A stretch of DNA of 64,000 bases from an uncultured Fidelibacterota bacterium (GTDB lineage Bacteria > Fidelibacterota > Marinisomatia > Marinisomatales > UBA1611): assembly GCA_913040915.1 (NCBI GenBank), contig CAJWHW010000004.1, positions 3,367 through 67,366 on the forward strand, written 5' to 3'. Positions 9,959 through 37,889 of this stretch are shown piece after piece. Position 1 is the first letter of the stretch. The number at the start of each line of letters is the position of its first letter. The position numbers were made by a program, and so were the translations under genes. The notes under the pieces are model-generated. The model saw only the letters and a list, made by a program, of their open reading frames with translations. It ran no database searches and was not told the DNA's origin.

Positions 9959-9992
9959 GTGGGGCCTAAATCAATTGTTGGCCCATGGTGCT

Positions 9993-10834: not shown

Positions 10835-10859
10835 GATAGATCCTATTTTTCTTTCTTAT

Positions 10860-14263: not shown

Positions 14264-15573
14264 CGTAATGAATTCATATGGTCAATGCGTTGCTGTACTA
14301 CACTTGCTGTGCCTATATCTCTGCGATGAAACAAGGGACCTTTTACTGCGGATATTTCTTTTTCTGCAATTGCTTCTGCTTTAGATATTGTATCGGCCAT
14401 CCCTACAACTGCCACAGTGCGGCTACCAGCTTCTATCAATTGACCATTTTTAATATCTACTGAAGCGTAAAAAAGACCATCCCGGTTTTCAACACTGGAC
14501 ACATCGATCTCCTGGCCTTTTATCGGGCTTTCTGGATACCCTTTTGGAACGGCATATTTACAAACGGTAGCCTGGTTGGAAAATTGAACATTGATCTGAT
14601 CCAAGGTGCCTTCTGCAATAGCAATGCAAATATCAATATAATCTGATTCCAATAGGGAAAGTACATTCATCGCTTCCGGGTCACCCAGGCGAGCATTATA
14701 TTCGATCAGCTTCACGCCGTTAGCAGTGGCCATAAAACCACCGTAGAGAATACCCTTATAGCCTTCACTAAACTTAGCCTTTAAAGCTTTGGCGGTTGCA
14801 AAATTGATAGCTTTGGCTTCCGCGATTTCATTATCATTCAAAAAAGGCAAACCATGATTCGCATCAGAATAAGTACCCATTCCACCAGTGTTGGGCCCTC
14901 GGTCTCCTTCGTAGGCCCGTTTATGATCTTGAACAATAGGCATATGCTTCAGGTTATCTCCATCACAAAAGCTCATAAGAGAGAATTCCTGTCCCACAAA
15001 TTTTTCTTCGATCACAAAGCTGCCACCATTATCTGTCAAATCTTGGCAGTAGACTAAAGCTTCATCATGGGAATGTAAATGATCTCCTGATACTTTTACT
15101 CCCTTGCCACCCATAAGACCATCATATTTTACTACGTAATTTTCTTTTAGCTCTTTCAGGAATTCTGCTACCCCGTCCATGGAATCAAAGGTCTGGTATT
15201 TAGGACCTCCAGGGATTACAAATTCCTTTAATAAATTTCTGGTGAACGCTTTAGATGTTTCCAGCTGCGCAAGTTTTTGTTTGGGCCCTACAGTTTTTAC
15301 GCCGACATTCCAAAGGGCATCGGCAACACCGTTTTCCAGTGGATTTTCCGGGCCTATGATAGCCAGAGTTGCGGCGGTCTCCTGAGCATAGTTTACGACA
15401 AAGTCTGGATCACTCATCTTACCCACTGTTAATTCATCGCAGATTTCTGCAATCCCTGGGTTCATATTGGACGCGAGGCAGTAAAGCTCTTTTTCTTGTG
15501 GAGATCTGTCTAATGCACGGACAATGGCATGCTCCCGGGCACCGGAACCTATGATTAAAATTTTATTCACCAT
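14260..15573 (-). CDS. purD: phosphoribosylamine-glycine ligase
   Basis: It has ILIIGSGAREHA at the N-terminus, an ATP-grasp core and ...EYNARLGDPE... Confidence 0.95.
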   Translation of the reverse strand: MVNKILIIGSGAREHAIVRALDRSPQEKELYCLASNMNPGIAEICDELTVGKMSDPDFVVNYAQETAATLAIIGPENPLENGVADALWNVGVKTVGPKQKLAQLETSKAFTRNLLKEFVIPGGPKYQTFDSMDGVAEFLKELKENYVVKYDGLMGGKGVKVSGDHLHSHDEALVYCQDLTDNGGSFVIEEKFVGQEFSLMSFCDGDNLKHMPIVQDHKRAYEGDRGPNTGGMGTYSDANHGLPFLNDNEIAEAKAINFATAKALKAKFSEGYKGILYGGFMATANGVKLIEYNARLGDPEAMNVLSLLESDYIDICIAIAEGTLDQINVQFSNQATVCKYAVPKGYPESPIKGQEIDVSSVENRDGLFYASVDIKNGQLIEAGSRTVAVVGMADTISKAEAIAEKEISAVKGPLFHRRDIGTASVVQQRIDHMNSLR

Positions 15574-15583
15574 TCGATTCGTT

Positions 15584-17146: not shown

Positions 17147-17403
17147 ATATTATTTTCTTATTAATTATGATTAAGGAGTATTTCATTAAAAAGGCCTCAG
17201 CATAATAAATGAATAACCGAAGATACAATTGCCCAAAAAAAGAAAAACTGTTTATGGGTTTAAAACATCTCAATAAAATATTATGCTTATTTATATTAGA
17301 AATTTTATGATAGTATCGTTTGTAAACAATCAATTTCAATTATATATAATTGTTTAAACTGAATTTTGATCATCTATTTGTATATTTAAATGATCTATTA
17401 TAA

Positions 17404-19041: not shown

Positions 19042-19119
19042 TAATATATTGCCAGTGTTTACGATTAGGTAAAAAGAACACGTAGCTTTTGACTAACTCA
19101 AATAAAGCTAGGGCACATT

Positions 19120-19479
19120 TTAAATCCAGACATCGTTCTCAGTTGTGAGTGAACCACCAGCGTCTCCAGTATTGGTTACCCCTTTTGGTTCTATGATCAT
19201 AATCTGGCATTCGTTCTGTGCTGCCGGTTTGTGTTTCATACCCTTGGGAACAACAATCATTTCACCCTTTGACAGTGTTACGGTTTTATCAGGGAATTCA
19301 ATGGTCAGTTCACCATCCAGTACGATGAATGCTTCGTCCGTATCTTCATGAGCATGCCAGATAAACTCACCATCCACCTTTGCAAGTTTGAACTGATAAT
19401 CATTCATTTCAGCGATTACCTTTGGTGTCCAGTGATCCGAAATTTTTTCGAGTTTTTCAGAAAGATTGATTATTTGCAA
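19120..19479 (-). CDS. cupin domain protein
   Basis: It is a 119-aa protein with cupin motifs (WHAHEDTDEAFIVLDG...; ...GEMIVVPKGMKHKP). It lies 8 nt downstream of purF. Confidence 0.7.
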   Translation of the reverse strand: MQIINLSEKLEKISDHWTPKVIAEMNDYQFKLAKVDGEFIWHAHEDTDEAFIVLDGELTIEFPDKTVTLSKGEMIVVPKGMKHKPAAQNECQIMIIEPKGVTNTGDAGGSLTTENDVWI

Positions 19480-19487
19480 AGGATGTC

Positions 19488-20975
19488 CTAAGTAATCGGG
19501 TTTCCCGTATTGCGATCATTCACACGCATGGTTTCCATTTCAACTACCTTGGCTGCATCAATATCATTAGCCACGTAATTTCCATCCAGGCAGGCCATAC
19601 ATGGTCGGTCAATGTGATGATCCCCTCTGCGGGTTACTGCCTCCACAAGATCATCGATGGTTTGATAGAGCAGGGCATCCACTTCCATATATGCTTCAAT
19701 GGCATCTTCTGTCATATTTCCTGCGATAAGTTCATCCTTGGTAGGCATATCCACGCCGTAAAAGCAAGGCGATTTCACAGGAGGGCAAGCCACAGCGAAA
19801 TAGACTTCCTTTGCCCCGAAATCTTTAAGCATACGAACGATCTCCCAACTGGTATTCCCTCGGACAATGCTGTCATCCATGATCATGACTTTTTTATTTC
19901 TGATTTCTAATTCCTGAGGTACCAGCTTGTATTTTACAGATTTTTTCCGTTCCGCTTGCCCTGGCATAATAAAGGTTCTGCCGATGAACGTGTTTTTGTA
20001 CAGGCCTTCCGAATAACGAACACCAAGTTCATGAGCAAAGGATAGTGCAGCGGTATTGGCCGTGCTCGGTGCAGGTATCACAATATCCGGTATTTTATTT
20101 GGATATTTTTTTTGCCAGGCTTCTGCCAGATTTTGCCCCATGCGCAGGCGTGCCCTGTATACACTCACATCATTCAGGGTGGAATCAGGGCGGGCAAAAT
20201 ATACATATTCAAAAATGCAGGGATTGAATTCCTTCTTTATTAGGCGCTTGTTGAAAACCTGTCCACTTTCATCCACGTAAATTAATTCACCGGGCAGTAC
20301 AGTTCCGGTGGGCTCATATCCTAGTGCATAAAACATGGTGTTTTCGGAAGCAAAAATATAATCTTTTCTGCCATTACCATTCGATCGCTGCCCCTTAACC
20401 AGAGGACGAATCCCCTGGGGGTCTCTAAAAACAACAAGTCCTTTGCCAATAATAATACATGTAACGGAATATGCCCCCGTTACTTTATTAAAAATATTTT
20501 TGACTGCTTCACATAGCAGTTCAAAGAATTCTTCACTAGTTTGGGGAGGAATTTCTTTATGCAATGCGTCAGCAAATAAATGCAATAGCACTTCTGAATC
20601 ACTGGTTGTATTTAGGTACCTTGTTTCTTTTTTTGTTACTTCAGAAGCCATCTCATTATAGTTTGTTAAATTGCCGTTATGGGCTAGTGCAATACCGTAA
20701 GGAACTGATGTCCAAAAAGGTTGGACCTCTCCATGACTAAATCCGCCGTGAGTAGGATAGCGGTTGTGAGAAATACCAATGTTCCCCGTTAGAAGCTGCA
20801 TGTTTTCTTTATTGAAAATTTCTTTGGCTAGGCCGACCCCTTTCTCTTTATGCATTCGGTCGTCATAAGTCATGATGCCAGCGGCGTCTTGTCCTCGGTG
20901 CTGTAGGTGAATTATACTATCGTAAAGCTCAGCGGCAACAGGTTTATGAGAAAATATTCCGGCGATTCCGCACAT
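19488..20975 (-). CDS. purF: amidophosphoribosyltransferase
   Basis: It has the N-terminal nucleophile MCGIAGIF and the PRPP loop VMIMDDSIVRGNT. Confidence 0.95.
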   Translation of the reverse strand: MCGIAGIFSHKPVAAELYDSIIHLQHRGQDAAGIMTYDDRMHKEKGVGLAKEIFNKENMQLLTGNIGISHNRYPTHGGFSHGEVQPFWTSVPYGIALAHNGNLTNYNEMASEVTKKETRYLNTTSDSEVLLHLFADALHKEIPPQTSEEFFELLCEAVKNIFNKVTGAYSVTCIIIGKGLVVFRDPQGIRPLVKGQRSNGNGRKDYIFASENTMFYALGYEPTGTVLPGELIYVDESGQVFNKRLIKKEFNPCIFEYVYFARPDSTLNDVSVYRARLRMGQNLAEAWQKKYPNKIPDIVIPAPSTANTAALSFAHELGVRYSEGLYKNTFIGRTFIMPGQAERKKSVKYKLVPQELEIRNKKVMIMDDSIVRGNTSWEIVRMLKDFGAKEVYFAVACPPVKSPCFYGVDMPTKDELIAGNMTEDAIEAYMEVDALLYQTIDDLVEAVTRRGDHHIDRPCMACLDGNYVANDIDAAKVVEMETMRVNDRNTGNPIT

Positions 20976-22327
20976 TAGATTAGATCCACTAGTTTAGGGG
21001 CAATGCCTACATATGTTTTGGGAGATAAGGATAATAGAATATTCTTATCTTCCTTAGAGATATTCAATCCCGACACAAATTCTGCCATGGATTCAGCATT
21101 GATGGTTTGTCCGTGAGTCAGTGATTTCAATTGTTCGTAAGCGTTTGGTTTCCCTGATTTTCGTAAAATGGTCTGTACTGCTTCTGCCAGCACTTCCCAG
21201 TGGTTATCCAGCTCATTCCCCATCTGTATTTTATTAATTGTAATTCTCCCCAAGCCTTTTAAAATATTTTTAAGAGCTAAGTAAGAATGCCCTAGAGATA
21301 CACCCTGATTACGCAGAGTGGTAGAATCTGTGAGATCGCGCTGCATGCTTGAGATGGGTAGTTTTACCGCTAGGTGATTTAATAAAGCATTGGCAATCCC
21401 CATGTTCCCTTCCGCATTCTCGAATTGAATGGGGTTAATCTTATGGGGCATTGTGGAAGAGCCTACTTCGCCAGCTACCTTTTTTTGCATCAATACTCCC
21501 CGGCTTATGTAAGCCCAAATATCACGGCACAGGTCAGTCAGAATAGAGTTTACACGTACGATCTGGTGATAACTTTCTGCTAAAGAATCATGGTCTTCAA
21601 TCTGAGTAGTGATAAGATTTGGTTCAAGCCCGAATGATTTAATGAATCTGGATGCAAATCGTGGCCAGTCTGTTTTTGGAGATGCAGTCACATGGGCAGA
21701 CCAGGTGCCGGTAGCACCGCCAAATTTCCCCATCAGAGAATGAGTTTTTATTTTTTTGATTTGTCGATCGAGCCGACCGTAGAACACTGCCAGTTCTTTA
21801 CCAAATGTAGTGGGGGTGGCCGGTTGGCCATGTGTCAAAGAGAGCATGGGAACATTCCTGTACTTACGAGCCAGTCTCTTTAAATACTTATTTATCGCTT
21901 GCAGTGCTGGTAGATACACTTGTTTTAATCCATCCTGCCACATGAGCGAATAGGATAAATTATTCACATCTTCCGATGTCAGAGCAAAATGGATCCAGGG
22001 ATGGATGGATTGTTTAATTCTGCCCTGTATGTAATATTCAATTGCTTTCACATCGTGATTAGTTGTTGATTCAATATTCTTTACTTTTTCTGCAGCAGCA
22101 GTGTTGAAGTTTTTATAGATATTCCGTAGGCGGGCCTGTTCATCTTTGGAAAATGGCGATAGTTCTTGAATGCTCTTTTCATGGCCCAAGGCTATGATAT
22201 ATTCTATCTCCACTTTTAAACGGTATTGCATAAGAGCAGATTCAGAAAAGTATGCAGAAAGGTCCTCTACGCTATTGTTATAACGTCCATCAAGTGGTGA
22301 AATTGCATTGAGTCGACTAGACACCAA
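20975..22327 (-). CDS. purB: adenylosuccinate lyase
   Basis: It has the fumarate-lyase signature GSSTMPHKINPIQFEN and is 450 aa long. Confidence 0.95.
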   Translation of the reverse strand: MVSSRLNAISPLDGRYNNSVEDLSAYFSESALMQYRLKVEIEYIIALGHEKSIQELSPFSKDEQARLRNIYKNFNTAAAEKVKNIESTTNHDVKAIEYYIQGRIKQSIHPWIHFALTSEDVNNLSYSLMWQDGLKQVYLPALQAINKYLKRLARKYRNVPMLSLTHGQPATPTTFGKELAVFYGRLDRQIKKIKTHSLMGKFGGATGTWSAHVTASPKTDWPRFASRFIKSFGLEPNLITTQIEDHDSLAESYHQIVRVNSILTDLCRDIWAYISRGVLMQKKVAGEVGSSTMPHKINPIQFENAEGNMGIANALLNHLAVKLPISSMQRDLTDSTTLRNQGVSLGHSYLALKNILKGLGRITINKIQMGNELDNHWEVLAEAVQTILRKSGKPNAYEQLKSLTHGQTINAESMAEFVSGLNISKEDKNILLSLSPKTYVGIAPKLVDLI

Positions 22328-22703
22328 AAATGCGTTTAACAGCTAACGCACAATTACCTGGATCAACCACAGTAAGTACCGGTGTATTGCTGGGCATTTG
22401 CAGAGTCGAATGAATGTTCACCAGCATATCCGCCTTATCTGAAAAAGGCGGACAGCCTAAGGTGGGAAATGCAGAATTGGCAGCCACGAATCCGGACAGG
22501 GCATTGGATCGTCCGGCGATAGTGATATACACAATATCTTTATTATCTTTATTAGCATTTAAGATATCCAGAACTTTCAGAGGCTCCTTATGTGCTGATG
22601 CTGCATGCTGTTCCCATGCAATTCCGTATTCATCCAGTTTGTCAGTAATTTTTTTCGCGTGGGGTTCATCTGATGTTGAACCCATGATAATCACTGTTTT
22701 CAT
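22317..22703 (-). CDS. purE: class II PurE-type AIR carboxylase (PAICS-like)
   Basis: It has IMGSTSD, SAHKEP (class I has SAHRTP) and IAGRSNALSGFVAANSAFPTLGCPP. The last closely resembles the human PAICS segment [24 protein letters not shown] as I recall it. Confidence 0.85.
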   Translation of the reverse strand: MKTVIIMGSTSDEPHAKKITDKLDEYGIAWEQHAASAHKEPLKVLDILNANKDNKDIVYITIAGRSNALSGFVAANSAFPTLGCPPFSDKADMLVNIHSTLQMPSNTPVLTVVDPGNCALAVKRIFGV

Positions 22704-23686
22704 AATTCATCCTTTAAGTTTGTGTTAATGCGTTTCTGTACTTCCTTACCGGTCTCTGGAAAAGGGAAGGCGACCCCAGTAATGGTTTCGTAGAGATATA
22801 TATAGCGACTGGAAAGTTCAATCACCAAATCAGTCGGGGCCTCCGGCAATGTTTCATCGTTGTAGGGGTCACAATTATCCACGAACCACAGGCGTAGGAA
22901 TTCTTTATCAATATTTTGAGGCTCCTGCCCATTGGAAATACGTTGTTCGTAGGTTTCAGCAATCCAATATCTGCTGGAATCTGGAGTATGGATTTCATCA
23001 ATCAACACAATATTTCCATCGGCGTCTCGTCCCATTTCATACTTAGTATCTACCAAGATCATGCCGTGTTCTGCTGCTTTCTGCTGGCCGAAGGTAAAAA
23101 GTTCCAGAGCCTTCTGACTGCAGTAATCCCAATCTTTCTGGTTCATCCATCCTTCGCTCACAATCTCTGCCGGTGCAATGGGCCGGTCATGGTGTTCCTC
23201 CTTTGTAGTCGGTGTAAGCATATTAGTATCTAGTTTTTGGTTTTTCTTAAGCCCTTCTGGTAGAACATTACCACAATATTGTCGATCACCATTATTATAA
23301 ACCGTCCACAGCGATGTGCTGGTACTACCTGTAATATATCCGCGAACCACAAATTCAATGGGGAAAACATCGCATGTTTTTACCAATGTTACATTGGGGT
23401 CTGGCACATGAAGCACATGGTTTGGAATAATGTTTTTTGTCTGATCAAACCACCAGGCGCTAGTTAGGTTAAGGACCTGTCCCTTAAAGGGAATAGCAGC
23501 CAGCACGCGGTCAAAAGCACTTTGTCGGTCCGTGGTTATCAACGCAATTTTATCTCCCAGGTTATATTGGTCTCTAACCTTGCCGGTCTTTTTGGAACCA
23601 CTGGGAAGATTTGTTTTAGTGAGGGTGTTATTTAATTCCGCCTCGATGCGGTCTTTGTAGTGTTTAGTTGATTCGATAGCATTCAT
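22700..23686 (-). CDS. purC: SAICAR synthetase (long, Ade1-like form)
   Basis: It has GKVRDQY, VVRGYITGS, LVDTKYEMG and DEIHTPDSSRYW. It overlaps purE by 4 nt. Confidence 0.9.
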   Translation of the reverse strand: MNAIESTKHYKDRIEAELNNTLTKTNLPSGSKKTGKVRDQYNLGDKIALITTDRQSAFDRVLAAIPFKGQVLNLTSAWWFDQTKNIIPNHVLHVPDPNVTLVKTCDVFPIEFVVRGYITGSTSTSLWTVYNNGDRQYCGNVLPEGLKKNQKLDTNMLTPTTKEEHHDRPIAPAEIVSEGWMNQKDWDYCSQKALELFTFGQQKAAEHGMILVDTKYEMGRDADGNIVLIDEIHTPDSSRYWIAETYEQRISNGQEPQNIDKEFLRLWFVDNCDPYNDETLPEAPTDLVIELSSRYIYLYETITGVAFPFPETGKEVQKRINTNLKDEL

Positions 23687-24929
23687 GAGATAGTGGGTTG
23701 TATAGTATATTAGTGTTTAATATGTCTTGTAAAACAGTGTTTAAATTACCGCTATTTACGGATACATTCCATATGACACCACGCTTTAATTTGGTAAGTT
23801 CTTGAATTTCAAACCGTTCTGTAAGGGATTCAAATTTTGCACGCCCATGCATATCTTCTTTCTGGCGCACTAAAAAAGACACTGTGTTTTTATCTGCTTT
23901 TGTTTGACTGATAAATTCTTTGTTTGAATTATAAAGCTCTCCTGTGGCATCAATGCGTTTTAAATTTGCATCCCGGTCGCCACTGGTAGAAATTTCCCAA
24001 TGAGTCTGGCGGGAAATAGTGACATCGTGACCAAGTTGATTTAGTGCATTATGTACTGACGCTGCTTCGTTATCGGTAATAATCATATCAATCACCCATT
24101 CTGTTGCCTTCGGGTTTGCTATATGTTCTTGCACTTCGTATTGGGGACGGTCATAGAATAATTTATGTTTTGTGATCGGATTTCCAAGTTCAATAAACTC
24201 TTTCATAGAAGAAAAAATAACATCTCCGTTATCCGTTCGTTCCGGATGAGGCATCATGGCCATAATATTTCCCTGCGTATTGCATACAGCAGCTAGGTTA
24301 TACATAGATCCGTTGGGATTCGTAGGAAACTCATCCATCACGTTTCCGTTGTCATCGCAGTAGCGGTAAACGGTTTGCTCATTAGCAATCATTTTTTCCA
24401 ATAATTCTTCTGGAATGATAAAACGTCCTTCGCCATGGGCTAGCGGTATATTAATAAAATCACCAGTCTTTAAATGACGTGTAAATGCACAGCGTTCAGG
24501 TGAAATAGACATTTGTAGATTAGCCCAGGTATTGTAATAACCCACACCCACAACATGGCCACCTTTTACCCGCTTGTTATCTGTGAGTGCCAATCCGACT
24601 CGGTGATTTGCCATCCCGGGGACGAGCTTGCTTTCTACCAGAATCTGGGCTCCATTGCAGATGCCAAGTACTGGCTTCCCTTTATTTGCCTCAATTTTGA
24701 TCTTCTTCATGATGGGATCCAGGGCCGCAATAACGCCGGCACGGGAGCGGTCTTCATAGGCAAATCCGCCCACAATTATATAACCATGAAAATCTGATAG
24801 TTTTTCGGCCTGCTCATTCCATAGAAATTCAATTGGGTTCAATCCCACGCGGTGGCAAGCCATGATTGTTTCACGTTCTGTATTGGAACCAGGGAATTGA
24901 ATGATTGCAATTTTTGCCATAGAGCTCAC
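23664..24929 (-). CDS. purQ: FGAM synthase glutaminase subunit PurQ fused to two C-terminal PurS-like repeats
   Basis: The N-terminal ~245 aa is PurQ-like (IAIIQFPGSNTERE, GICNGAQIL nucleophile Cys, MMPHPER). The C-terminal ~175 aa contains two ~80-aa segments ending in LYNSNKEF and LYNPLSHECYRI, which resemble the PurS C-terminal L-x-NP-x-x-E-x-Y motif. Confidence 0.8.
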   Translation of the reverse strand: MSSMAKIAIIQFPGSNTERETIMACHRVGLNPIEFLWNEQAEKLSDFHGYIIVGGFAYEDRSRAGVIAALDPIMKKIKIEANKGKPVLGICNGAQILVESKLVPGMANHRVGLALTDNKRVKGGHVVGVGYYNTWANLQMSISPERCAFTRHLKTGDFINIPLAHGEGRFIIPEELLEKMIANEQTVYRYCDDNGNVMDEFPTNPNGSMYNLAAVCNTQGNIMAMMPHPERTDNGDVIFSSMKEFIELGNPITKHKLFYDRPQYEVQEHIANPKATEWVIDMIITDNEAASVHNALNQLGHDVTISRQTHWEISTSGDRDANLKRIDATGELYNSNKEFISQTKADKNTVSFLVRQKEDMHGRAKFESLTERFEIQELTKLKRGVIWNVSVNSGNLNTVLQDILNTNILYNPLSHECYRIN

Positions 24930-25636
24930 AGAGAACTATTTAACCAACTATATATTTTTGTTATTGTTTTTTTACTCATTTCGTGACCAATAGAATCTTC
25001 AAAGTATTCAGCATTAGCCCCCAATCCATCAAAAAAGGCTTTTGCCTGTATTGACCATTTTTTACTAAAACTATCTTCTGTTCCATGCAAAATCAAAACA
25101 TTCAGATCTTTATAATCATCTTCAGAGTTTCTTAATGTATATTTAATTGGAATACGTGCACTATGAGCAAAGATACCTGCAAAATATTCTGGATGGGATA
25201 GGCCCAAATTAAAGGCCATAATCCCTCCTTGGCTAAAGCCACCTATAAATACATTAGAAATATCATAATTGTATTGTTTGTTGATTGTGTCAATAGTAGA
25301 GAGTATTCTTTGTTTACTATGTTCGATCTGTGTCTGATTGGATGCAGTATCTCCATCAATAATGCTAAACTCATACCATCTATTTAAAAAGCCCAACATA
25401 AATCCATAAGGTGCTTCTATGGATACAATAAGAAACCGATCATCAATAATTTCAATTACATCATTAAATTGATTTTTATTGCTCCCGTATCCATGTAATA
25501 AGAATAACACAGGCGGTTTTTCTCCAACATCTTTATGCATTTTTAATTTATATTGTAATGGTACATTGTTACTCGTGGCAAAAAGCACACAAAACACAAT
25601 AATTAATACTAACAATGATGATAATATTCGTTTCAT
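24926..25636 (-). CDS. secreted alpha/beta hydrolase (phospholipase/carboxylesterase-like)
   Basis: It has a signal peptide (MKRILSSLLVLIIVFCVLFATS), a nucleophile elbow GFSQGG and a late HGTEDS/GH pair. It has 4-nt overlaps with both purM and purQ. Confidence 0.7.
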   Translation of the reverse strand: MKRILSSLLVLIIVFCVLFATSNNVPLQYKLKMHKDVGEKPPVLFLLHGYGSNKNQFNDVIEIIDDRFLIVSIEAPYGFMLGFLNRWYEFSIIDGDTASNQTQIEHSKQRILSTIDTINKQYNYDISNVFIGGFSQGGIMAFNLGLSHPEYFAGIFAHSARIPIKYTLRNSEDDYKDLNVLILHGTEDSFSKKWSIQAKAFFDGLGANAEYFEDSIGHEMSKKTITKIYSWLNSSL

Positions 25637-26670
25637 TTGAAGCTCACTATACTGCTCCCAGCTACTATGGTACCTATATCATAAATATGAGTTAATTCTT
25701 TCAGCGCATCTTTCACTAATTTCACATCGTTTGCATCCACAATAAAGACCATTCCAATACCCATATTAAAAGTACGAAACATTTCATCTTCATCTACATT
25801 ACCGATGGTTTGCATCACATCAAAAACCGGTAGGATTGGCCAAGATCTTTTTTGAATTTCTACTCCGCAGCCATCCGGTAAAATGCGTGGCATATTTTCT
25901 ACCAATCCGCCGCCGGTGATGTGGGCAACCCCTTTGATATCAACTCCGGCATCAAGCGTTGCAAATACATGCTTTGTATAATTAATATGGGGTTCAAGCA
26001 AAGTCAACCCAACAGACTTATCCAATCCAGGAATGGGGTCATTCACATCATATCCGCCAATTTCAAAAAAGAGTTTTCGGGCAAAGGAATATCCATTGGT
26101 GTGTAATCCATTAGAAGGCAACCCCAAGACCGAATGACCAGGCACAATTTTTTTGCCGTTAATAATGTTATCTTTTTCAACAACTCCAGTAATAACGCCT
26201 ACTAAATCGTGCTCGCCAGGCAGATATGTGTCAGGCATTTCTGCTGTTTCTCCACCCACCAAAGAAACACCTGTATCCTGACAGGCTTTCACCATTCCAG
26301 ATACAATCTCTTCAATAATTGTCGGATTTAGTTTGTCGTTTGCAATATAATCCAAAAAAGTGAGTGGTCGGGCACCCATGACTAAAATATCATTGGCGCA
26401 GGCGCTTAACAGATCAATGCCAATTGTATCGAATTTGCCTAGCTTTCTGGCAATGATGATCTTAGTACCTACACCGTCAATACTTTGCACCATGACAGGA
26501 TTCTTGTAACCATTAAGAATAGATTTAAGATCATAAAGGGAACCGAAACTGCCAAGACTAGTCAGCACATTAGATGTAAAAGTGGACTTTACGCCATCTT
26601 TGATGCGATTAACTGCTTCATTACCGGCATCAATATCAACGCCAGCTGATTTGTAGTCCAGCTTGCTCAT
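25633..26670 (-). CDS. purM: phosphoribosylformylglycinamidine cyclo-ligase (AIR synthetase)
   Basis: It has the SIDGVGTK motif and the AIRS/AIRS_C architecture, and is 345 aa long. Confidence 0.95.
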   Translation of the reverse strand: MSKLDYKSAGVDIDAGNEAVNRIKDGVKSTFTSNVLTSLGSFGSLYDLKSILNGYKNPVMVQSIDGVGTKIIIARKLGKFDTIGIDLLSACANDILVMGARPLTFLDYIANDKLNPTIIEEIVSGMVKACQDTGVSLVGGETAEMPDTYLPGEHDLVGVITGVVEKDNIINGKKIVPGHSVLGLPSNGLHTNGYSFARKLFFEIGGYDVNDPIPGLDKSVGLTLLEPHINYTKHVFATLDAGVDIKGVAHITGGGLVENMPRILPDGCGVEIQKRSWPILPVFDVMQTIGNVDEDEMFRTFNMGIGMVFIVDANDVKLVKDALKELTHIYDIGTIVAGSSIVSFK

Positions 26671-28999
26671 AGCTTATCACGCAAACCATTCGCCCAAGCT
26701 TCCACTGCATCAAGAACCGCAAGATTCACCGTTTTATTGATGTTAATTGTTGTACCACCGGTAGTTCCTATATCAAAAGGTCTCACACCATAGTTTGAAA
26801 AAATAGCTTGGACTTTTTCAATATTACCTTGATGCGTTTCTGCTAAAAAGCCACCTGTTTCAGAAAACAGAACCTTGACAAGGGAAAGGTCACTTTCAAT
26901 ATGGACTTTACAGCCGATATTCTTTCCAAAAGTCATTTCTGCGAGAGCTGATGAAATTCCACCATCAGCAATATCATGGCATGACAAAAACAACTCTTGA
27001 TCAATACAGTCGGTAACCGCAAATATCTGGTTTTTCACTTCATTTAAATCAGGTTTCGGTATTTGTGCTCCCAGCTCATCATAGAGAGAATAATACACCG
27101 ACCCCCCCAGCTCATCTTTCCGTTCGCCAATCATTAAAATCACAGAATCCGTTTTTTGAAAATGCATAGGTACAGTACGACGCACATCCTTTATACGACC
27201 CAGACAGCTTACAATAGGACTAGGAGGAATGGCCCCGTTTTTTGATTCATTATAAAAACTCACATTTCCTGCAATAATGGGTGTGGCGTCATGAGGGTTA
27301 TCTTTCAGTGTAATTGTATGGCAGGCATCAGCAATGCCCCTGGCACTTTCTACAAACTCCCACATCTGGTGAGGCTTCTCTGGGTTGCCAAAACATAGAC
27401 AATCTGAAATAGCATGTGGTGTGGCGCCCACAGCTGCAACATTACGCATAGCTTCTACAACAGCATTCACCCCACACCAATATGGATCTATTAGACCATG
27501 GCGTGGATTATTATCTGTAGAAAGTGCTATACCTACATTACGAAGTTCTTCCGGATAATTTTCAGAATTAAAGGGAGCCAAGACTCCTGCATCAGCTAGA
27601 CCTGTTTCGGTATAGATTCTTCCCTGAACCTGTTTGTCGTACGTTTCAAAAACAGGCTCACGGCTGGCCATATTTTCATGGGCTAAAATTTTCAGCATTA
27701 TTTCATTATAATCGAAACCCTCCACAATCTCTGGTTCTGTAAATTTTTGTTGCCGTGCTTCGTAAGGGCGATCGTATAAAAAGCCTTTAGTTACTTCTGA
27801 TGCTGGGGCGTTGATAATTTCTTCATCACCGCTGTGAACAATATACTGACCATCTCTGCGGATTTTGCCTATGACAGATGCCTGTGCACCTTTACTCACG
27901 CCGGGCAGGTTAAATACATTATTATAATGATCTAGTATCATTGGTGTCACCTCCGGAGGTGACACCCACATAAAACGCTCTTGGGTCTCGCTACACAGGT
28001 AAACCGATGGGTGGAGGTTTTCCATACCAATATGAATTTTGTCCATCCACACTTCAGAACCATACCCCGATGTTTCTGCCAGTTCGACGCTTGCACAGGC
28101 AACACCACCAGCCCCTAGATCCTTAAAACCCATTTTATGGACTAGTCCCTTTTCTTTTAGGATATCAAATAAGGCGTAAGATGATTTTAATAGATGGCGC
28201 TCCAGAAAAGCGTTAGGTTCCTGAACAGCACCCTTGTTTTGTTCCTTTTTATCTTCTTCTAGTTCTAGAGATGCAAAACTTGCACCGCCAAATCCGCTAT
28301 TATCGGTAGGCTTACCAATGAGAATTAGGTCATAGCCATCAGCATCCTTCGGGGCGTAGGAATGAAGGATGTGGTCTTCGCGAACTATACCCAATGTAAC
28401 TAAAGTGACTAAACAATTTTCATTATATCCTTTATGGTAATAAATGTCTCCACCAATGTTTGGAATACCTAATGGATTACCGTAGCCAGCGACGCCTGCC
28501 ACCACGCCGTCATGAATCCATTTAGTTTTATTACTACTAATTTCTCCAAAGCGAAAAGAATCGGTGCAGGCAATCACCTCTGCGCCCATACACAAGACAT
28601 CCCGGACATTCCCGCCAACGCCAGTAGCCGCTCCTTCGTAAGGAACAATTTGGGATGGGTGATTGTGTGATTCGTGGCTCATGACCACACACCATCGGTG
28701 ACCTTCATTATCGGTTGCAACCGATACCACGCCCGCATCTTCTTTGGCACCAAGGATTACGTCGGGTCCTTTAGTAGTAAATTGCTTTAAATGGATGCGG
28801 CTACTTTTATAGGAGCAGTGTTCAGACCCTTGGATGGAGAATAGAATAAGCTCCGCCAAAGATGGAGCACGCCCTAGCATATTATTTTGAATTTTAAGAG
28901 CTTCTTCAGCGGTAAGGGGAATGTTCAGATCATGTAGTCTGCTATTGATAGCTTCATCATTGAGCCCGTTGAAATCAACAAGTTCCTGTGTAAAGGGCA

Positions 29000-29000
<1 letters not shown>
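26667..29000 (-). CDS. purL: FGAM synthase II (small PurL)
   Basis: It has the MSHESHNHPS motif, is 777 aa long and has duplicated AIRS-like domains. Confidence 0.95.
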
Positions 29001-30331
<1,331 letters not shown>

Positions 30332-33188: not shown

Positions 33189-34238
33189 TTAATCTTGCAT
33201 TTTTCTAATCCAATTTTTAACAAGCTCTACACCTTCTTTATGAACCAGTTTTCTGCCCAGTTCAGGCATCATGATTCCAGGGTCTGTTGATTCTATTCGA
33301 TAAAGCATTATTGATTTATCTGGATGCCTTGGTACAATGGTGTATTTCATATCACCCGAGCCCCGTCCTGCTGCAATAGGTGGTTTCATGATCCCTAATT
33401 TTGTTGGATCAGTTTCTTCAACATTCAAAAATAAACCTGATGTTTCTCCTGGAGCACCAAACCGATGGCAATGGGCACAGTTAATATCAATCCAGGCCCG
33501 CGCTCGTTCAGCAACAGTTCCATCTTCGTGATTATCATAATCGGGCGTATAAGGCAATTCAGAAATTGGAGGTAGCCCTTTTATCATATCTAATTCTGAC
33601 CATTTCTGTAGTTGATTCATTATCTCATTCCCATAATCATAGTCATTATTTAGTAGTCTTACTTTTGGTCCAATAGGTACCATTTTATTGTGACTGACAT
33701 GACAACCTTTACATTGATTGAAGTTGGGGACACTATATTTAAAATTGACTTGTTCGCCTGCAAAATTAGTAAATGACACATCCATTCTGTCACCGGCAAT
33801 TTCTAAGAATGCATCTGACTGCTCTTCATCCCAAATATAGGGGAAGCCCATCCAGCCATCGGGAGTATGAATAAGTAGCCTTGTCTCCATGAGACGAATA
33901 TTTTCTTCAGGATATCTTAAATCAGCAGGGAAATAAAATGTTTTAATCAGTATGGACTCAATTGGAAAATCAAAGGAACCGTCTACTTGGTAGATTAATT
34001 GTTCACCGGCTGGTAAAACAATAAATCTAGATTTTAGAGCATAATCAGAAAATAATTGAGCTGATATATTATATGGGACTATGCCATCTGCTGGCTGGTG
34101 TTGTGCTATCCGTCCTTCAAAGAAATTATAATCAGATAATTTAGGCTTTGCATATTTAAGTGGACTTATTCCAGAAAGAAGGGAAAATAGAATAAGAGAA
34201 AAAGCAAAGCGATGCACTTTTCTCAAAAAAATAATCAT
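33189..34238 (-). CDS. diheme c-type cytochrome (SO2930-like family)
   Basis: It has a signal/anchor N-terminus and two CxxCH motifs (CKGCH, CAHCH). It is coupled by 4-nt overlap to the beta-helix gene upstream. Confidence 0.7.
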   Translation of the reverse strand: MIIFLRKVHRFAFSLILFSLLSGISPLKYAKPKLSDYNFFEGRIAQHQPADGIVPYNISAQLFSDYALKSRFIVLPAGEQLIYQVDGSFDFPIESILIKTFYFPADLRYPEENIRLMETRLLIHTPDGWMGFPYIWDEEQSDAFLEIAGDRMDVSFTNFAGEQVNFKYSVPNFNQCKGCHVSHNKMVPIGPKVRLLNNDYDYGNEIMNQLQKWSELDMIKGLPPISELPYTPDYDNHEDGTVAERARAWIDINCAHCHRFGAPGETSGLFLNVEETDPTKLGIMKPPIAAGRGSGDMKYTIVPRHPDKSIMLYRIESTDPGIMMPELGRKLVHKEGVELVKNWIRKMQD

Positions 34239-35422
34239 TTTTTTATTTCTAAGATCAATTGGTGTTCACTACCACAATGATGCGGAGATAGATCTTCCGA
34301 AAAATTAGAAATAAATGGTGAATACCATTCTTTAAAATTGTGTTCTATGTCTAGATTTGTAAATCTAGCGCGCCCATTATTTTGAATACATAGTCCTGCT
34401 GTTATTTTTGGATCTTGCATACCATCATAAATAATATCTGGTATGTTCCTTCCGTATTTAATTGCTAATAATTTTCCAATGTCATAATCTAAGGTGGGGA
34501 ATCCTGGCCATCGCTCATAAACATTATTATATATATGAATATCTGCTGTGTAAGGATTATATAGAGAATCCTTAATTGTTTCTTCTGTCATGAAATAACT
34601 GACCACACCAGTTCCTACACTTTTATTATTTCGAATTGTATTCCGGTAAATATATATATCTCTACAGGCTAAAATCATAATTCCTGTACCCGGGAGTACT
34701 TTTCCAACAATATTACCCGGGGGTGCGAAATTGAATAAATTATTGGATTCAATAATGTTATTAAAAACATGAATATTCCCGCCTTTTTTCTGTATCAGGT
34801 CAGGTAAATCAAATACAAGAATACCCCCCGTATTATTATAGGTATGATTTTTGTAGACTTTTGCATTATTTGAATTTTCAATTTCAATACCAGCCACATT
34901 ATCAAAAACAGTGTTATAGCGCACAATGATTTCATTAGACTGACCCACATAAATTCCGGCGTCAGAAGCACCGATCGAAAGTGAATGTTCAATTAACACA
35001 TTATTACATTGCACTGGATATAGTCCATAGGCTCCATTGGTAGGTTTGGGACCTCCTGTCCATTCTGTTTTTAAGTGACGGAAAACAATTCCATCCGTAT
35101 ATTGAACCTTAATGGCATCACCTTTTGAATCTTGAACTGTAAAATTTTCCAATGTTATATTTTTGGAATTAGTAATGCTGATGCCTTGCGCTCCTTCTTC
35201 TTGATTGGAAAACTGCAGGATGGATTTATCCATGCCGGATCCACGAATAAACAAATTTTCTTTTCCTTCAATTGATAAAGTACCTAAAATTAGATGGACA
35301 CCATCCGGCACTGTGATGGTGTCACCGAACTCTGCTAGAATGAATTGCATTTGCAGTTCTTTTTCCAGATTCGCATAAGCTATGCAAACTAAAAGATGAA
35401 GTGATATGGTTAAATGGGTCAT
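34235..35422 (-). CDS. parallel beta-helix repeat protein
   Basis: It has periodic Asn-ladder repeats (NITLENFTV, NNVLIEHS, NEIIVRYNTVFDN, NAKVYKNHTYNN, NIHVFNNIIESNN). Confidence 0.65.
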   Translation of the reverse strand: MTHLTISLHLLVCIAYANLEKELQMQFILAEFGDTITVPDGVHLILGTLSIEGKENLFIRGSGMDKSILQFSNQEEGAQGISITNSKNITLENFTVQDSKGDAIKVQYTDGIVFRHLKTEWTGGPKPTNGAYGLYPVQCNNVLIEHSLSIGASDAGIYVGQSNEIIVRYNTVFDNVAGIEIENSNNAKVYKNHTYNNTGGILVFDLPDLIQKKGGNIHVFNNIIESNNLFNFAPPGNIVGKVLPGTGIMILACRDIYIYRNTIRNNKSVGTGVVSYFMTEETIKDSLYNPYTADIHIYNNVYERWPGFPTLDYDIGKLLAIKYGRNIPDIIYDGMQDPKITAGLCIQNNGRARFTNLDIEHNFKEWYSPFISNFSEDLSPHHCGSEHQLILEIKK

Positions 35423-35534: not shown

Positions 35535-36251
35535 ATGAAGCCTACTCGTTTCCATTCCTGGAATGTTTCTCCTGAAGAAGCATCTGCAATTCAGCTCAAT
35601 TTGCGTGATAAAGTTGAAGTTCAACCTTTGCCAAATGATATTGAATTGGTGTGTGGGACATCTATATCTCATGATCCAAATACCAATACAGTGCATGTAG
35701 CATTAGTGGTCTCAAAATTTCCAGCGATGGAATTAGTAGAGTGTCACAGTCTATCAGAAGAAACCACATTCCCTTATGTTAGTGGTCTATTGGCATTTCG
35801 GGAAGCACCGTCTTTGATGACATTGCTAAAGAGAATCCAGTACCAGCCTGATGTAATATTATTTCATTCTCACGGGCTTGCCCACCCCAGAAAGTTTGGC
35901 TTAGCATGCCATTTAGGTGTTTTATTTAATATACCATCGATTGGTGTTGCAGACCGGGTTTTGGTTGGATACCATGATAATTTGCCGATAGAGAAAGGAT
36001 GCTATGTCCCACTTAAGGATAACAAGCAAGAACTTGGACTTGTTCTGCGTACAAAGGAAGATGAGAATCCTATATTTGTTTCTGTTGGGCACAAATCGGA
36101 TCTTTTCACTGCTATGGAATTAACTATGAAATGCATCACGCGTTACCGGCATCCCGAACCCATACGCCAGGCACAATTAGCTGTGAGAGCCCAAAGAGAT
36201 GGTGAAAATATTGATTTAGAACATGGTAGTAATCAAGCGTCTTTATTTTAG
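35535..36251 (+). CDS. nfi: endonuclease V homolog with substituted metal-binding residues
   Basis: It is colinear with E. coli Nfi: LLAFRE / LSFRE, HGLAHPRKFGLACHLGVL / HGISHPRRLGVASHFGLL, IGVA / IGVAKK and RYRHPEPIRQA / GYRLPEPTRWA. See findings for the catalytic-site changes. Confidence 0.8.
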   Translation: MKPTRFHSWNVSPEEASAIQLNLRDKVEVQPLPNDIELVCGTSISHDPNTNTVHVALVVSKFPAMELVECHSLSEETTFPYVSGLLAFREAPSLMTLLKRIQYQPDVILFHSHGLAHPRKFGLACHLGVLFNIPSIGVADRVLVGYHDNLPIEKGCYVPLKDNKQELGLVLRTKEDENPIFVSVGHKSDLFTAMELTMKCITRYRHPEPIRQAQLAVRAQRDGENIDLEHGSNQASLF

Positions 36252-36414
36252 TACATATTTTTATGCTCCAAATAAAACAATAACTATAGGAATTGTAAGT
36301 TTCTAGGATAGAGGTTAGAGTTTTAGCATAATGGTCACTTATTTCTTATTTTATATTTTAGTTATTAATAATAACCTAACATTGTTTTTTTAAAGTAAAA
36401 ATAAAGGAATAGAT

Positions 36415-36768
36415 ATGTCTGAATTCACCCTATATCATAATCCAAGGTGAGGGAAAAGCAGGGGAGCCGTGTCGCTCCTCAAAGAAGAAAATATAGATTT
36501 CAAAATTATAGAATATTTAAAAACACCCTTAAATAAAAAAGAAATCTTATCTATCTCTAAAAAACTGAACCTTCCTCCATCAGGTTTTGTGCGAAAGAAT
36601 GAAGTAGAATTCAAAGATAATAATTTGAGTGATGAGCTTGATAATGATGAAACAATGGCAGAAGCAATCGCGAAATTTCCAAAAATTATGCAACGTCCCA
36701 TTGCTGTTAAAGGCAACCAGGCAGTCATTGGACGTCCGCCAGAAAATGTTTTAATTTTAATTCGTTGA
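36415..36768 (+). CDS. ArsC-family (Grx-type arsenate reductase-like) protein with in-frame UGA (predicted Sec) at the catalytic Cys position
   Basis: ATG 36415 has AAGGA 6-11 nt upstream. The translation is MSEFTLYHNPR-U-GKSRGAVSLLKEENIDF..., compared with R773 ArsC MSNITIYHNPACGTSRN. TGA at 36448-36450 is in frame with the track ORF 36469..36768. Arg equivalents are conserved (VRKN, QRPI, GRPPE). Confidence 0.7.
36461..36480 (+). promoter_or_regulatory. candidate bacterial SECIS hairpin
   Basis: The sequence GGGGAGC-CGUGUC-GCUCCUC forms a 7-bp stem with one G-U pair and a 6-nt loop containing GU. It starts 11 nt after the UGA. It is locally GC-rich in an AT-rich gene. Confidence 0.5.
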
Positions 36769-36779: not shown

Positions 36780-37889
36780 ATGAAAAAAACATTATTGCTT
36801 TTTACCCTGTTTATCATGTGCTGTGAGCCATTCGTTACCACCTTCCCAGACTCATCTGATGCAGTCATGTATGAAGCTACTGATAAGACCAATGTGGCTT
36901 ATAGTGGAGAAAATATAAAAGTGATTACATGGAACATCCGTTTTGGTGTTGGACGTTTTCCATTCTTTGGCGATTCCTGTGGTGATAGTGTTATTTTAGA
37001 TGATGGTTCCATTGAAAAAATAATGTCTAACATAGCAGACTCCATTAATGCTATGAATGCTGATATTGTGTTGTTGCAGGAAGTGGATGTATCATCGAAA
37101 AGAACAGGCTACATAGATCAGGTTCAATATCTTTTGGACAATACCCACATGAATTATGGGTGTTACGCTTCCATGTGGAAGGCCGATTATATACCTAGTG
37201 GTGGCATTGGACGTGTTGATGCTGGGAATGCTATTTTATCAAAATATAAACTTACAGATGCAGAACGAATCCAACTTAGGCTAAGAACAGATCAGGACGA
37301 GTTGATTCAGTATTTTTATTTAAGACGTAATATATTAAAAGCAAAGGTCCCTGAATTATCACAAGGAGGAAAATCTTTTTATGCTGTGGATATCCATGCT
37401 ACAGCTTTTGCAACAGATGATACCAAACAGCAGCACATTGATAAATATGTTCAAACTCTAGCAACTATTCATAATAATGGTGATTATTTTGTTACCGGAG
37501 GTGATCTCAATTCTGTGCCACCTGGATCGGTTACCGATTTTTGTGAAAGTGATATGTGTGAAGGAGATGATTACCACACTGAAGGTGCTGAAGAATATCA
37601 TAAAGAGGGGAGCTATTTCGAAAACTTTGATGGTGAACCTGATCTGTTGCTTCCGCTTTATAACTCTTACAATGCGGCTATCGATTCGGCAGATGCAAAT
37701 CTTCCTGGTCATTTTACCCATGGCCCGAGTACCAGTTATGAAATTAATAATATTAAATATGATAGAAAATTGGACTATCTTTTTACGAATAAAACTTGGG
37801 TAGATGGCGCATCCAGAACGCACCAAGCAGCCTGGGCACTAAGTGATCATATGCCGGTTAGCTCAATTATAAATATGGGAGGTGATTAA
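36780..37889 (+). CDS. endonuclease/exonuclease/phosphatase (EEP) family lipoprotein
   Basis: It has a lipobox-like signal (LLLFTLFIMCCEP) and the motifs WNIRFG, LLQEVD and a C-terminal SDHMPV. I chose ATG 36780 over TTG 36765. Confidence 0.75.
   Translation: MKKTLLLFTLFIMCCEPFVTTFPDSSDAVMYEATDKTNVAYSGENIKVITWNIRFGVGRFPFFGDSCGDSVILDDGSIEKIMSNIADSINAMNADIVLLQEVDVSSKRTGYIDQVQYLLDNTHMNYGCYASMWKADYIPSGGIGRVDAGNAILSKYKLTDAERIQLRLRTDQDELIQYFYLRRNILKAKVPELSQGGKSFYAVDIHATAFATDDTKQQHIDKYVQTLATIHNNGDYFVTGGDLNSVPPGSVTDFCESDMCEGDDYHTEGAEEYHKEGSYFENFDGEPDLLLPLYNSYNAAIDSADANLPGHFTHGPSTSYEINNIKYDRKLDYLFTNKTWVDGASRTHQAAWALSDHMPVSSIINMGGD

Follow-up and report, generated by a model that had tools for sequence, protein, structure and literature searches.

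A predicted selenocysteine-containing ArsC-family reductase of Candidatus Marinimicrobia, with a SECIS-like hairpin and a truncated database annotation

Here we describe a gene that very probably encodes an ArsC-family reductase (glutaredoxin-type, thioredoxin-fold) with selenocysteine (Sec) as its nucleophile, located on the plus strand at positions 36415-36768 of a 64-kb stretch of DNA, hereafter the window, from the open-ocean organism Candidatus Marinimicrobia (SAR406). The predicted product has 117 residues, carries Sec (U) as residue 12 within the motif U12-G-K-S15 (UxxS), and ends at a second TGA, at 36766-36768. A first-pass annotation of this DNA had already proposed a Sec-containing ArsC-family reductase with its SECIS element, missed by the open reading frame caller, and the proposal is now supported by family scores, by a Sec/Cys column among homologues, by selection on the coding sequence and by a covarying hairpin.

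Translated from the ATG at 36415, the coding sequence reads MSEFTLYHNPR*GKSRGAVSLLKEEN..., i.e., 117 residues with the TGA codon counted. The asterisk corresponds to the in-frame UGA at 36448-36450 of the plus strand, read here as the Sec codon and equivalent to the catalytic Cys12 of R773 ArsC. A Shine-Dalgarno-like AAGGA can be read from the sequence at 36404-36408 of the same strand, 6 nt 5' of the ATG, and purine-rich motifs (AAAGGGAA, AAAGGAAG) occupy the equivalent position in the homologous loci L002-L009. The mechanical list of open reading frames starts the gene at GTG 36469 instead, giving a protein of 99 aa; the earlier claim that the true start is the in-frame ATG 36415, with AAGGA upstream, is borne out from the sequence. 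Judging from this list and from the position of the hairpin described below, the GTG that gene callers have taken for a start (36469-36471, plus strand) is the codon of Val19 and lies within the SECIS loop, preceded by the GGAG of the hairpin stem. The GenBank entry MBL50651.1 (Candidatus Marinimicrobia) is the truncated 99-aa form of this exact gene, and this annotation is an artefact.

The comparison of homologous loci indicates that the segment preceding the UGA is a genuine part of the gene. In codons -6 to -1 (LYHNPR) the amino acid is kept in 15-16 of 16 sequences and synonymous diversity amounts to 0.43-0.70; since the peptide is conserved and its synonymous sites vary, the pre-UGA peptide appears to be translated and under selection. 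Conservation of the 11 upstream codons, on which the first reading of the gene depended, thus takes the form of purifying selection at the protein level before the UGA. Protein conservation is found downstream of the UGA too, so that both sides behave as coding sequence. Moreover, the codon aligned with the UGA is restricted to three triplets in the 89 homologous loci compared (TGA in 26, TGC in 38, TGT in 25; no other codon), and the expected homologues with either Cys or TGA in this column are therefore both found, in the proportion of 63 to 26. The TGA-bearing genes comprise 20 distinct sequences, and by tblastn the identity of their products to the window protein falls as low as 45-60%. 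Ten independent assemblies retain the TGA together with the hairpin, a strain at 98% identity among them.

As regards family assignment, the profile scans against PF03960 and TIGR00014 were performed with Cys put in place of the UGA. The product matches Pfam ArsC PF03960 (E = 7e-13; 49.1 bits, cutoff 24) and narrowly passes NCBIfam TIGR00014, arsC (glutaredoxin), with 110.1 bits against 106.05, but its 62.4 bits against NF007456, the model of E. coli chromosomal/R773 ArsC proper, fall below the cutoff of 242. The protein is thus in the broader YfgD-like branch, outside the NF007456 subfamily. An assignment to the Spx/MgsR regulators was considered and rejected, given the scores of 41.1 bits against 75.05 for TIGR01617 and of 31.9 against 123 for NF002459, and a UxxS motif instead of CxxC. 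Among solved structures, the ArsC proteins 3f0i, 3rdw, 2mu0 and 1i9d are matched with E values from 3e-19 to 9e-13.

R773 ArsC (PDB 1i9d/1jzw) aligns without gaps over residues 1-115, and the absence of gaps implies that codon 12, the UGA, matches Cys12; the claim that the TGA falls exactly on the catalytic cysteine stands. The nucleophile position of the HNPxC(G/S)xSR loop is hence occupied, with a predicted Sec for Cys. Furthermore, the three arginines of the arsenate-binding triad, which the first-pass annotation had recognized in the motifs VRKN, QRPI and GRPPE, bear the same residue numbers as in R773 ArsC: Arg60 (codon at 36592-36594), Arg94 (36694-36696) and Arg107 (36733-36735), all on the plus strand, align with Arg60, Arg94 and Arg107 of the R773 enzyme (1i9d) and are invariant in an alignment of 22 sequences (A1), as would be the case for an oxyanion-binding triad.

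A SECIS-like stem-loop follows the UGA at 36461-36480 of the plus strand. Its arms, GGGGAGC (36461-36467) and GCUCCUC (36474-36480), enclose the loop CGUGUC (36468-36473) and form 7 bp including one G-U pair, with a minimum free energy of -12 kcal/mol; the conserved core of the stem comprises 5 bp (36463-36467 with 36474-36478). The spacing between UGA and stem is 10 nt, the stem beginning at the 11th, and the apical loop starts 17 nt after the UGA. The GC content of the hairpin is 75%, against 32.6% for the remainder of the gene. The element had been described beforehand as a 7-bp GC-rich stem with a 6-nt GU-containing loop, starting at the 11th nucleotide after the UGA in an AT-rich gene, and each of these features was confirmed. 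The folding energy by itself is not significant (z = -0.89 for a 56-nt segment); we regard the hairpin as beyond chance because of the comparative analysis, not because of single-sequence energy. Rfam scans of the region, both at the gathering threshold and at a permissive E-value, returned no SECIS match, and the four weak matches obtained are attributable to chance.

Indeed, a hairpin in the same register is present in 16 of the 20 distinct TGA sequences, as against 2 of 61 Cys homologues. The inner 5 bp are paired in all 80 cells of the comparison and three of the pairs show compensatory changes, among them GGAGC/GCUCC to GAAGC/GCUUC and AAAAUC/GAUUUU. The covariation score was reached by none of 500 shuffles and lies above those of all slid registers, and the C-G-U of the apical loop is invariant. 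Synonymous sites tell of the same constraint: the codons GGA, GCC, GTG and TCG of the hairpin are frozen (diversity 0-0.14), compared with 0.77-0.78 at the flanking Arg and Leu codons, and they are minor codons in the genome, with a joint frequency of 3e-5. Within about 84 kb, this is the only site of its kind, UGA plus hairpin. Hence a stem-loop lies 3' of the UGA with G and U in its apical loop, and on comparative sequence grounds the hairpin is a putative minimal bacterial SECIS, backed by covariation, of which it offers a clean example. With the loop at +17 and an invariant G/U, it presumably also fits the bSECISearch criteria for a bacterial SECIS.

In the SECIS of E. coli fdhF, the apical loop has a conserved G and U, and the minimal upper stem-loop is separated from the UGA by some 11 nt. 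The window hairpin resembles elements of this type: it is a stem-loop situated within coding sequence just past the UGA, and it has a similar G/U in the apical loop and a similar spacing of about 11 nt, but its stem is much shorter (5-bp core), lacks the bulged U, and carries the loop CGUGUC instead of GGUC. In a sister subclade, the element is situated 12 nt further downstream and the CGUG loop is kept.

The default interpretation, adopted by gene callers and in MBL50651.1, is that of a pseudogene or nonsense mutation, in which the TGA terminates translation and the locus gives nothing functional, or else a 99-aa protein from GTG 36469; that the Sec machinery is not seen in the window and its flank would agree with it. 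However, a TGA retained by 20 such diverged sequences and a protein-level selection acting on the 11 codons before it are not what a dead gene would display, the 99-aa product would be devoid of strand beta-1 and of the entire catalytic HNPxC loop, and the supposed GTG start is the invariant loop triplet of a conserved hairpin. The TGA/Cys column and the upstream selection effectively refute this interpretation, and we consider it very improbable. An error of sequencing or assembly, with TGA standing for TGT or TGC, has a prior plausibility in a metagenome-derived contig, the only point in its favor. Nevertheless, TGA is the codon in each of the ten independent assemblies, which stem from differing projects and samples (TARA, other ENA assemblies, GCA_002722105.1 and GCA_001039925.1) and of which five differ from the window elsewhere in the gene, and dozens of diverged homologues have TGA as well, which settles the doubt raised at the outset about the identity of this codon and leaves the error with a practically null probability. 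A reassigned code (table 4 or 25), where TGA would mean Trp or Gly and the residue would be Trp, could be suggested by the W that 49 of the 120 nearest proteins in the databases show at this position. Yet this W is itself a TGA, rendered as Trp on short contigs whose genes were called in code-4 style, and the loci concerned fail to give the stored protein under table 11. Furthermore, of the 55 long open reading frames of the window, 16 stop at TGA, this gene included, as corresponds to the standard code; genes are unfragmented under table 11, no other gene of the window has an in-frame TGA, and a Trp at the catalytic Cys position would be biochemically senseless. Reassignment is, consequently, exceedingly improbable.

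Two further interpretations concern the hairpin. According to one of them, it would be the intrinsic terminator of a minus-strand transcript, unrelated to the TGA, and a consensus scan does flag the minus strand, with GGAGCGACACGGCTCC followed by CCTGCTTTTC. We reject it because there is no gene for the hairpin to terminate: no minus-strand gene ends there, and the sole minus-strand open reading frame lies within the ArsC coding sequence as its shadow. Besides, the three terminator-like sites counted are within the 1.8 +/- 1.6 expected from shuffling, and the hairpin accompanies the TGA from homologue to homologue, being nearly absent from those with Cys, so that hardly any likelihood is left to a terminator. 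The other interpretation accepts the read-through but not the Sec: a near-cognate tRNA (for Trp or Cys) would decode the UGA with low efficiency, and the hairpin would act as a stimulator or a regulatory pause, with no SelB binding. The lack of Sec machinery in the window and flank is compatible with this, as is the fact that SAR406 single-cell genomes were scored for SelD only (PMC5029168). Against it, at this redox-active position the UGA alternates with Cys codons and with no others, which is the hallmark of Sec/Cys pairs; the loop at +17 and the invariant apical G/U fit the SECIS model of the Sargasso and GOS surveys; specialists have scored the same family as a selenoprotein (PMC1088965; PMC2398784; PMC13188914); and SelD is present in the phylum (PMC5029168). 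We therefore deem Sec-independent read-through improbable.

For the Sec-containing reductase, the following sequence of events can be proposed. Translation would begin at ATG 36415, and the stem-loop at 36461-36480 would recruit a SelB-type elongation factor, loaded with Sec-tRNA(Sec), to the UGA at 36448-36450, where Sec would be inserted and translation would continue to the TGA at 36766. The Sec12 selenolate, located in the conserved loop HNPR-U-GKSR and ringed by Arg60, Arg94 and Arg107, would stand in for the Cys12 of R773 ArsC. Following the analogy with this enzyme, it would attack an oxyanion, arsenate, and be subsequently regenerated by glutathione and glutaredoxin. Arsenate is put forward as a possible physiological substrate on this analogy, and we word it as such in view of the YfgD-like character of the protein and of its surroundings: none of the ars operon genes occurs among the annotated neighbours and open reading frames of the 64-kb window.

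The gene is preceded by nfi, coding for endonuclease V (35535-36251, plus strand; Pfam PF04493, E = 2e-61), and the same order is observed in L002-L005 and L090-L099. Downstream, an Exo_endo_phos family protein (36780-37889, plus strand; Pfam PF03372) begins 11 nt past the ArsC stop, and gene calls are found at the equivalent site in the same two groups of loci; given so short a gap, both genes are probably co-transcribed. No selA, selB, selD or tRNA-Sec gene was found in the annotated 64-kb window, nor any Sec machinery in about 20 kb of additional flank (10 kb past each window end on a 98.6-kb TARA contig), and tRNA scans of the window and 16 loci yielded no tRNA-Sec. A candidate for SelD, the AIRS-family protein at 25633-26670, turned out to be PurM. 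Likewise, intergenic gaps of the window scanned for TGA-split genes contained no second selenoprotein gene, and what seemed a second TGA gene, an uncalled aldehyde dehydrogenase in L002, is accounted for by a 100-N scaffold gap and not by recoding. If Sec is inserted as proposed, selA, selB, selC and selD would be encoded elsewhere in the genome. The sole relevant item on Sec use in Marinimicrobia that a literature search retrieved is the report of SelD in three SAR406 single-cell genomes, classed as "orphan SelD", meaning that SelA and SelB went undetected in those partial genomes (Peng et al., 2016; PMC5029168).

The gene family itself has been known since 2005. ArsC selenoproteins of the UxxS type were described in the Sargasso Sea, with 14 sequences and a predicted SECIS (Zhang, Fomenko and Gladyshev, 2005; PMC1088965), and then in the GOS data, with 77 sequences (Zhang and Gladyshev, 2008; PMC2398784); a 2026 review (PMC13188914) places the family under TIGR00014, and the 2022 and 2026 reviews list it as "Arsenate reductase (ArsC) 1" under COG1393/TIGR00014. 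The mention, in the first-pass annotation, of ArsC-like Sec proteins in marine surveys has thus been verified in the first three of these sources. With its ArsC domain and U12-G13-K14-S15, the window protein belongs to this "ArsC 1 (UxxS)" family: it shares with it PF03960, the COG and TIGR00014, the U-x-x-S motif, an origin in open-ocean metagenomes, Sec in place of the catalytic Cys and a SECIS predicted directly downstream, and nothing substantively different was noticed. What is added here is the assignment to Candidatus Marinimicrobia, taken from cluster names, the evidence from SECIS covariation and synonymous sites, and the realization that mis-calling, by truncation or as Trp forms, affects nearly all database entries of the clade.

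Regarding its Cys-containing relatives, the protein has in common with the glutaredoxin-coupled ArsC of R773 and E. coli (PDB 1i9d, 1j9b, 1jzw) the thioredoxin-like fold family, the nucleophile at position 12, Ser15, Arg16, Arg60, Arg94 and Arg107. It differs in having Sec for Cys12, in lacking some 25 aa of C-terminal extension (117 versus 141 aa), and in its location outside an ars operon, and the similarity is modest (E = 9e-13). The closest solved relatives are the YfgD-like 3f0i and 3rdw, deposited as "putative arsenate reductase" (E = 3e-19 and 5e-19), which belong to the same class of about 119-121 aa, with a YHNP(R/K)C-SKSR loop and a C-terminal GRPPE, and have Cys where the window protein has Sec. 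To our knowledge, the physiological substrate of YfgD-like proteins is not firmly established, and these two structures consequently leave the function unsettled. The "Arsenate reductase-like protein" of the UxxC type (cd03032/NF041106) is also a selenoprotein of the ArsC/Spx superfamily brought to light by metagenome surveys, but the motif in the window is UxxS and NF041106 is absent from the NCBIfam matches at E <= 0.01.

The main value of the present case concerns annotation quality, as a selenoprotein abundant in the ocean is being systematically mis-called. Of the 120 nearest proteins in the databases, TGA forms make up 110: 61 begin at the codon position of Val19, truncated at a GTG or ATG in the SECIS loop, and 49 carry the spurious Trp discussed above; all the W-forms and truncated forms among the homologues have TGA in their DNA. 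Truncation inside the SECIS loop entails the loss of the active site, and correction restores the catalytic residue. Moreover, it would mark Marinimicrobia, one of the most abundant lineages of the deep ocean, as selenium-dependent, with a bearing on trace-element biogeochemistry. With the family on record since 2005, no new biological question is opened.

There is, finally, a small chance that the clade does not serve arsenate detoxification and represents a YfgD-like selenoenzyme acting on another oxyanion or redox substrate, in a conserved nfi / arsC / Exo_endo_phos neighbourhood, perhaps with a SECIS reduced to an unusual degree (a 5-bp stem and a CGUG loop) and recognized by a lineage-specific SelB. 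Were this the case, the shifted element of the sister subclade, with its CGUG kept, would suggest that CGUG is a SelB determinant in the phylum. In a separate search of GTDB genomes with the single protein as query, the matches listed included one distant Cys homologue, from Cellvibrionaceae.

In the mechanical ORF list of the window, the gene starts at GTG 36469 and encodes 99 aa, a product 100% identical to GenBank MBL50651.1, 'MAG: arsenate reductase (glutaredoxin) [Candidatus Marinimicrobia bacterium]'; the assignment of the gene to Marinimicrobia is added by the present analysis. The frame of this ORF stays open from ATG 36415, preceded by AAGGA at 36404-36408. Translation of 36415-36768 gives MSEFTLYHNPR*GKSRGAVSLLKEEN..., with TGA 36448-36450 as the only internal stop codon and TGA 36766-36768 at the end, i.e., a product of 117 aa when Cys is placed at the internal TGA. 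GTG 36469 is the Val19 codon, located within the loop of a hairpin, and is preceded by the GGAG of its stem, which accounts for a systematic mis-annotation of the start. The first-pass annotation, which had described this region (ATG 36415, TGA, hairpin and GTG-started ORF), agrees exactly with the sequence. Moreover, the mechanism it proposed, a selenocysteine (Sec)-containing ArsC with UGA at the catalytic Cys codon and a downstream SECIS, is judged right on comparative evidence, and the gene is very probably a Sec-decoded member of the ArsC family.

Several layers of evidence indicate that the TGA is translated. The 120 closest matches (among them P0002-P0120) in a 5.8-billion-protein collection were classed according to their catalytic column. 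In 61, of 96-100 aa, the protein begins (M/V)SLL..., with the same truncation as the window ORF at a GTG or ATG inside the SECIS loop; 49 are full length with Trp at the column (YHNPRWGKSR), and only 10 carry Cys. In the DNA of these homologues every 'W' is TGA, and upstream of every truncated call the frame M..LYHNPR-TGA is intact and preceded by an RBS. A single-query scan of the genome collection found only one distant Cys homologue. Among 89 metagenome and genome loci, the column holds either TGA (26) or a Cys codon (63: 38 TGC and 25 TGT) and nothing else, which makes it a textbook Sec/Cys pair. Furthermore, at each of codons -6 to -1 (L-Y-H-N-P-R) the amino acid is the same in 15-16 of the 16 distinct sequences of the window's clade, with free synonymous variation (diversity 0.43-0.70). 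Purifying selection thus acts on the peptide encoded ahead of the TGA, which must be translated, and a start at GTG 36469 is ruled out.

Other explanations of the internal TGA must be considered. A sequencing error is excluded: that the codon is TGA and not TGT or TGC holds in ten independent assemblies (TARA and other ENA assemblies, together with NCBI GCA_002722105.1 and GCA_001039925.1), all with an identical hairpin; a T-to-C difference elsewhere in the gene is common to five of the ten, among them L095, a locus about 98% identical to the window. A reassigned code is likewise excluded, as 16 of 55 long ORFs end in TGA, the ArsC gene included, and a scan of intergenic gaps and in-frame TGAs found no other TGA-interrupted gene in the window. 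Conservation around the TGA excludes a pseudogene. Sec-independent read-through of the UGA, the one rival left after these exclusions, would be very improbable, conflicting both with the exclusive Sec/Cys exchange at the column and with the SECIS-like geometry of the hairpin. As for the hairpin itself, a minus-strand intrinsic terminator (candidate 36478-36463) is a false call of the consensus scan, with no gene to serve.

The hairpin (36461-36480, plus strand; GGGGAGC / CGUGUC / GCUCCUC) forms 7 bp (MFE -12 kcal/mol), lies ten nt after the internal TGA, and reaches 75% G+C vs 32.6% in the rest of the gene. Its folding energy by itself is not significant (z = -0.89), so that the case for it rests on comparative evidence. 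Of 20 distinct TGA sequences, 16 have a stem of 5 bp or more whose 6-nt loop begins exactly 17 nt past the UGA; among 61 distinct Cys homologues, only 2 show such a stem in this register. In the alignment of those 16 sequences the five inner pairs are paired in 80/80 cells, with compensatory double changes in three pairs: GGAGC/GCUCC becomes GAAGC/GCUUC in loci L016 and L026, and AAAAUC/GAUUUU in L041. The structure beats 500/500 shuffles on percentage of cells paired and covariation score, as well as every slid register, and the loop C-G-U is invariant even with a wholly different stem sequence. Codons +5 to +8 (Gly-Ala-Val-Ser) are frozen (GGA 12/13, GCC 15/15, GTG 15/16, TCG 10/10), against a synonymous diversity of 0.77-0.78 in the flanking Arg and Leu codons. 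In the window genome GCC, TCG and CTC are minor codons (16%, 5.5% and 6.2% of their families), and the five codons of the hairpin (GGA, GCC, GTG, TCG, CTC) have a joint frequency of 3e-5. Over about 84 kb of this genome, no in-frame TGA other than that of ArsC combines an open frame to either side with a hairpin of this kind. No Rfam family matches it, as expected, bacterial SECIS elements being, to our knowledge, short and gene-specific. Altogether, the covariation and synonymous-site figures, new here, point to a minimal predicted SECIS with a CGUG loop.

A sister Sec-ArsC subclade (metagenome loci L018, L020, L024, L029, L030 and L042; MDGFTIYHNPR-U-GKSR[KQ][AT]LQLL) is without the +17 hairpin and has a 6-bp stem with loop GCGUGAC, beginning 29 nt past the UGA and showing its own covariation. 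The CGUG motif is common to both loops, and this element, also added by the present analysis, would be a relocated predicted SECIS.

ORF annotation of the 64-kb window revealed no selA, selB or selD, nor are there tRNA genes in it, and no Sec machinery was found in the 10 kb past each end (98.6-kb TARA contig). An AIRS-family protein (25633-26670), considered as SelD, is PurM (TIGR00878, 372 bits). Three SAR406 single-cell genomes, which are partial, have been listed with an 'orphan' SelD, SelA and SelB not being reported in them (Peng et al., 2016, PMC5029168); selenophosphate synthetase thus exists in the phylum. From the conservation of the recoded gene, we infer that the window genome would also encode the Sec machinery.

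The 117-aa product, with Cys at the TGA, matches Pfam ArsC PF03960 (E = 7e-13) and passes the curated cutoff of TIGR00014, the NCBIfam glutaredoxin-type arsenate reductase (110.1 bits vs 106.05). It falls below the cutoffs of the NCBIfam Spx/MgsR models, and fails NF007456, the narrow model for E. coli ArsC proper (62 bits vs 242). Among solved structures, the best matches are the ArsC-family 3f0i, 3rdw and 2mu0, followed by R773 ArsC (1i9d/1jzw). Alignment with the latter is gapless over residues 1-115, and therefore codon 12, the TGA, corresponds to catalytic Cys12; R60, R94 and R107 match the Arg60/Arg94/Arg107 triad. An alignment of 22 sequences shows no variation at these three residues or at Y7-H8-N9-P10, K14, S15 and R16. 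By structure matches, the closest kin are YfgD-like 'putative' arsenate reductases, and no ars operon lies near the gene; for these two reasons, arsenate is put forward as only somewhat the likelier substrate.

With U12-G-K-S15 and the TIGR00014 match, the protein meets the definition of the published 'arsenate reductase' selenoprotein family with a UxxS motif. As the first-pass annotation had stated, ArsC-like Sec proteins have been predicted in marine metagenome surveys: the first description of the family, from the Sargasso Sea, comprised 14 sequences and showed a predicted SECIS (PMC1088965), and GOS then gave, as 'ArsC 1, pfam03960, UxxS', 77 Sec sequences from 23 samples, alongside 784 Cys homologues (PMC2398784). 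It is listed in 2022 and 2026 reviews, in the latter under TIGR00014 (PMC13188914). The finding is the correct re-annotation of a known selenoprotein family, not a discovery, and the remark of the 2026 review that nearly all such families are bioinformatics-only, with uncharacterised functions (PMC13188914), applies here too. The present analysis also adds the scale of database mis-annotation, 110 of the 120 nearest entries. The Trp entries go back to gene calling of short contigs with TGA read as Trp, and, together with the truncated ones, they would mislead any alignment-based analysis of the active site.

The gene order nfi / arsC / Exo_endo_phos is kept in related contigs. Just upstream of nfi (33189-35422), the genes for an SO2930-family diheme c-type cytochrome (TIGR03806, 397 bits) and for a NosD-like right-handed beta-helix protein overlap by 4 nt and form a conserved pair. 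On the TARA contig, about 1.9 kb past the right window end, rho and an aminotransferase flank a lone gene (L103, 13406-14452) whose 348-aa product matches Pfam Cas6b_N and Cas6b_C; no cas genes are called beside it.

Besides housekeeping and cell-envelope genes, the window carries a Pho regulon and a large cluster for purine biosynthesis. The latter, on the minus strand, contains almost all of the de novo pathway (12136-30328: purH, purN, purD, purF-like, purB, a small purE-like ORF at ~22330-22700, purC, purQ, purM, purL, purA), with genes for an esterase, for a sugar kinase and for an SSF transporter lying in between. A dense phosphate-scavenging cluster (23-11963) comprises phoX, ppk2, a NUDIX gene, a phoB/phoR-like two-component system, pstSCAB, two phoU and a Na/Pi cotransporter. 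Phosphate transporters let arsenate into cells, but 24 kb separate the ArsC gene from this cluster. Two strain-variant contigs of the same population lack pstS-pstC-pstA-pstB, which in the window (4815-8326) stand between the phoR-like kinase and phoU, and have a 54-aa ORF instead (L101, 9149-9667; L102, 13366-13884), the high-affinity phosphate ABC transporter being a presence/absence polymorphism in this population.
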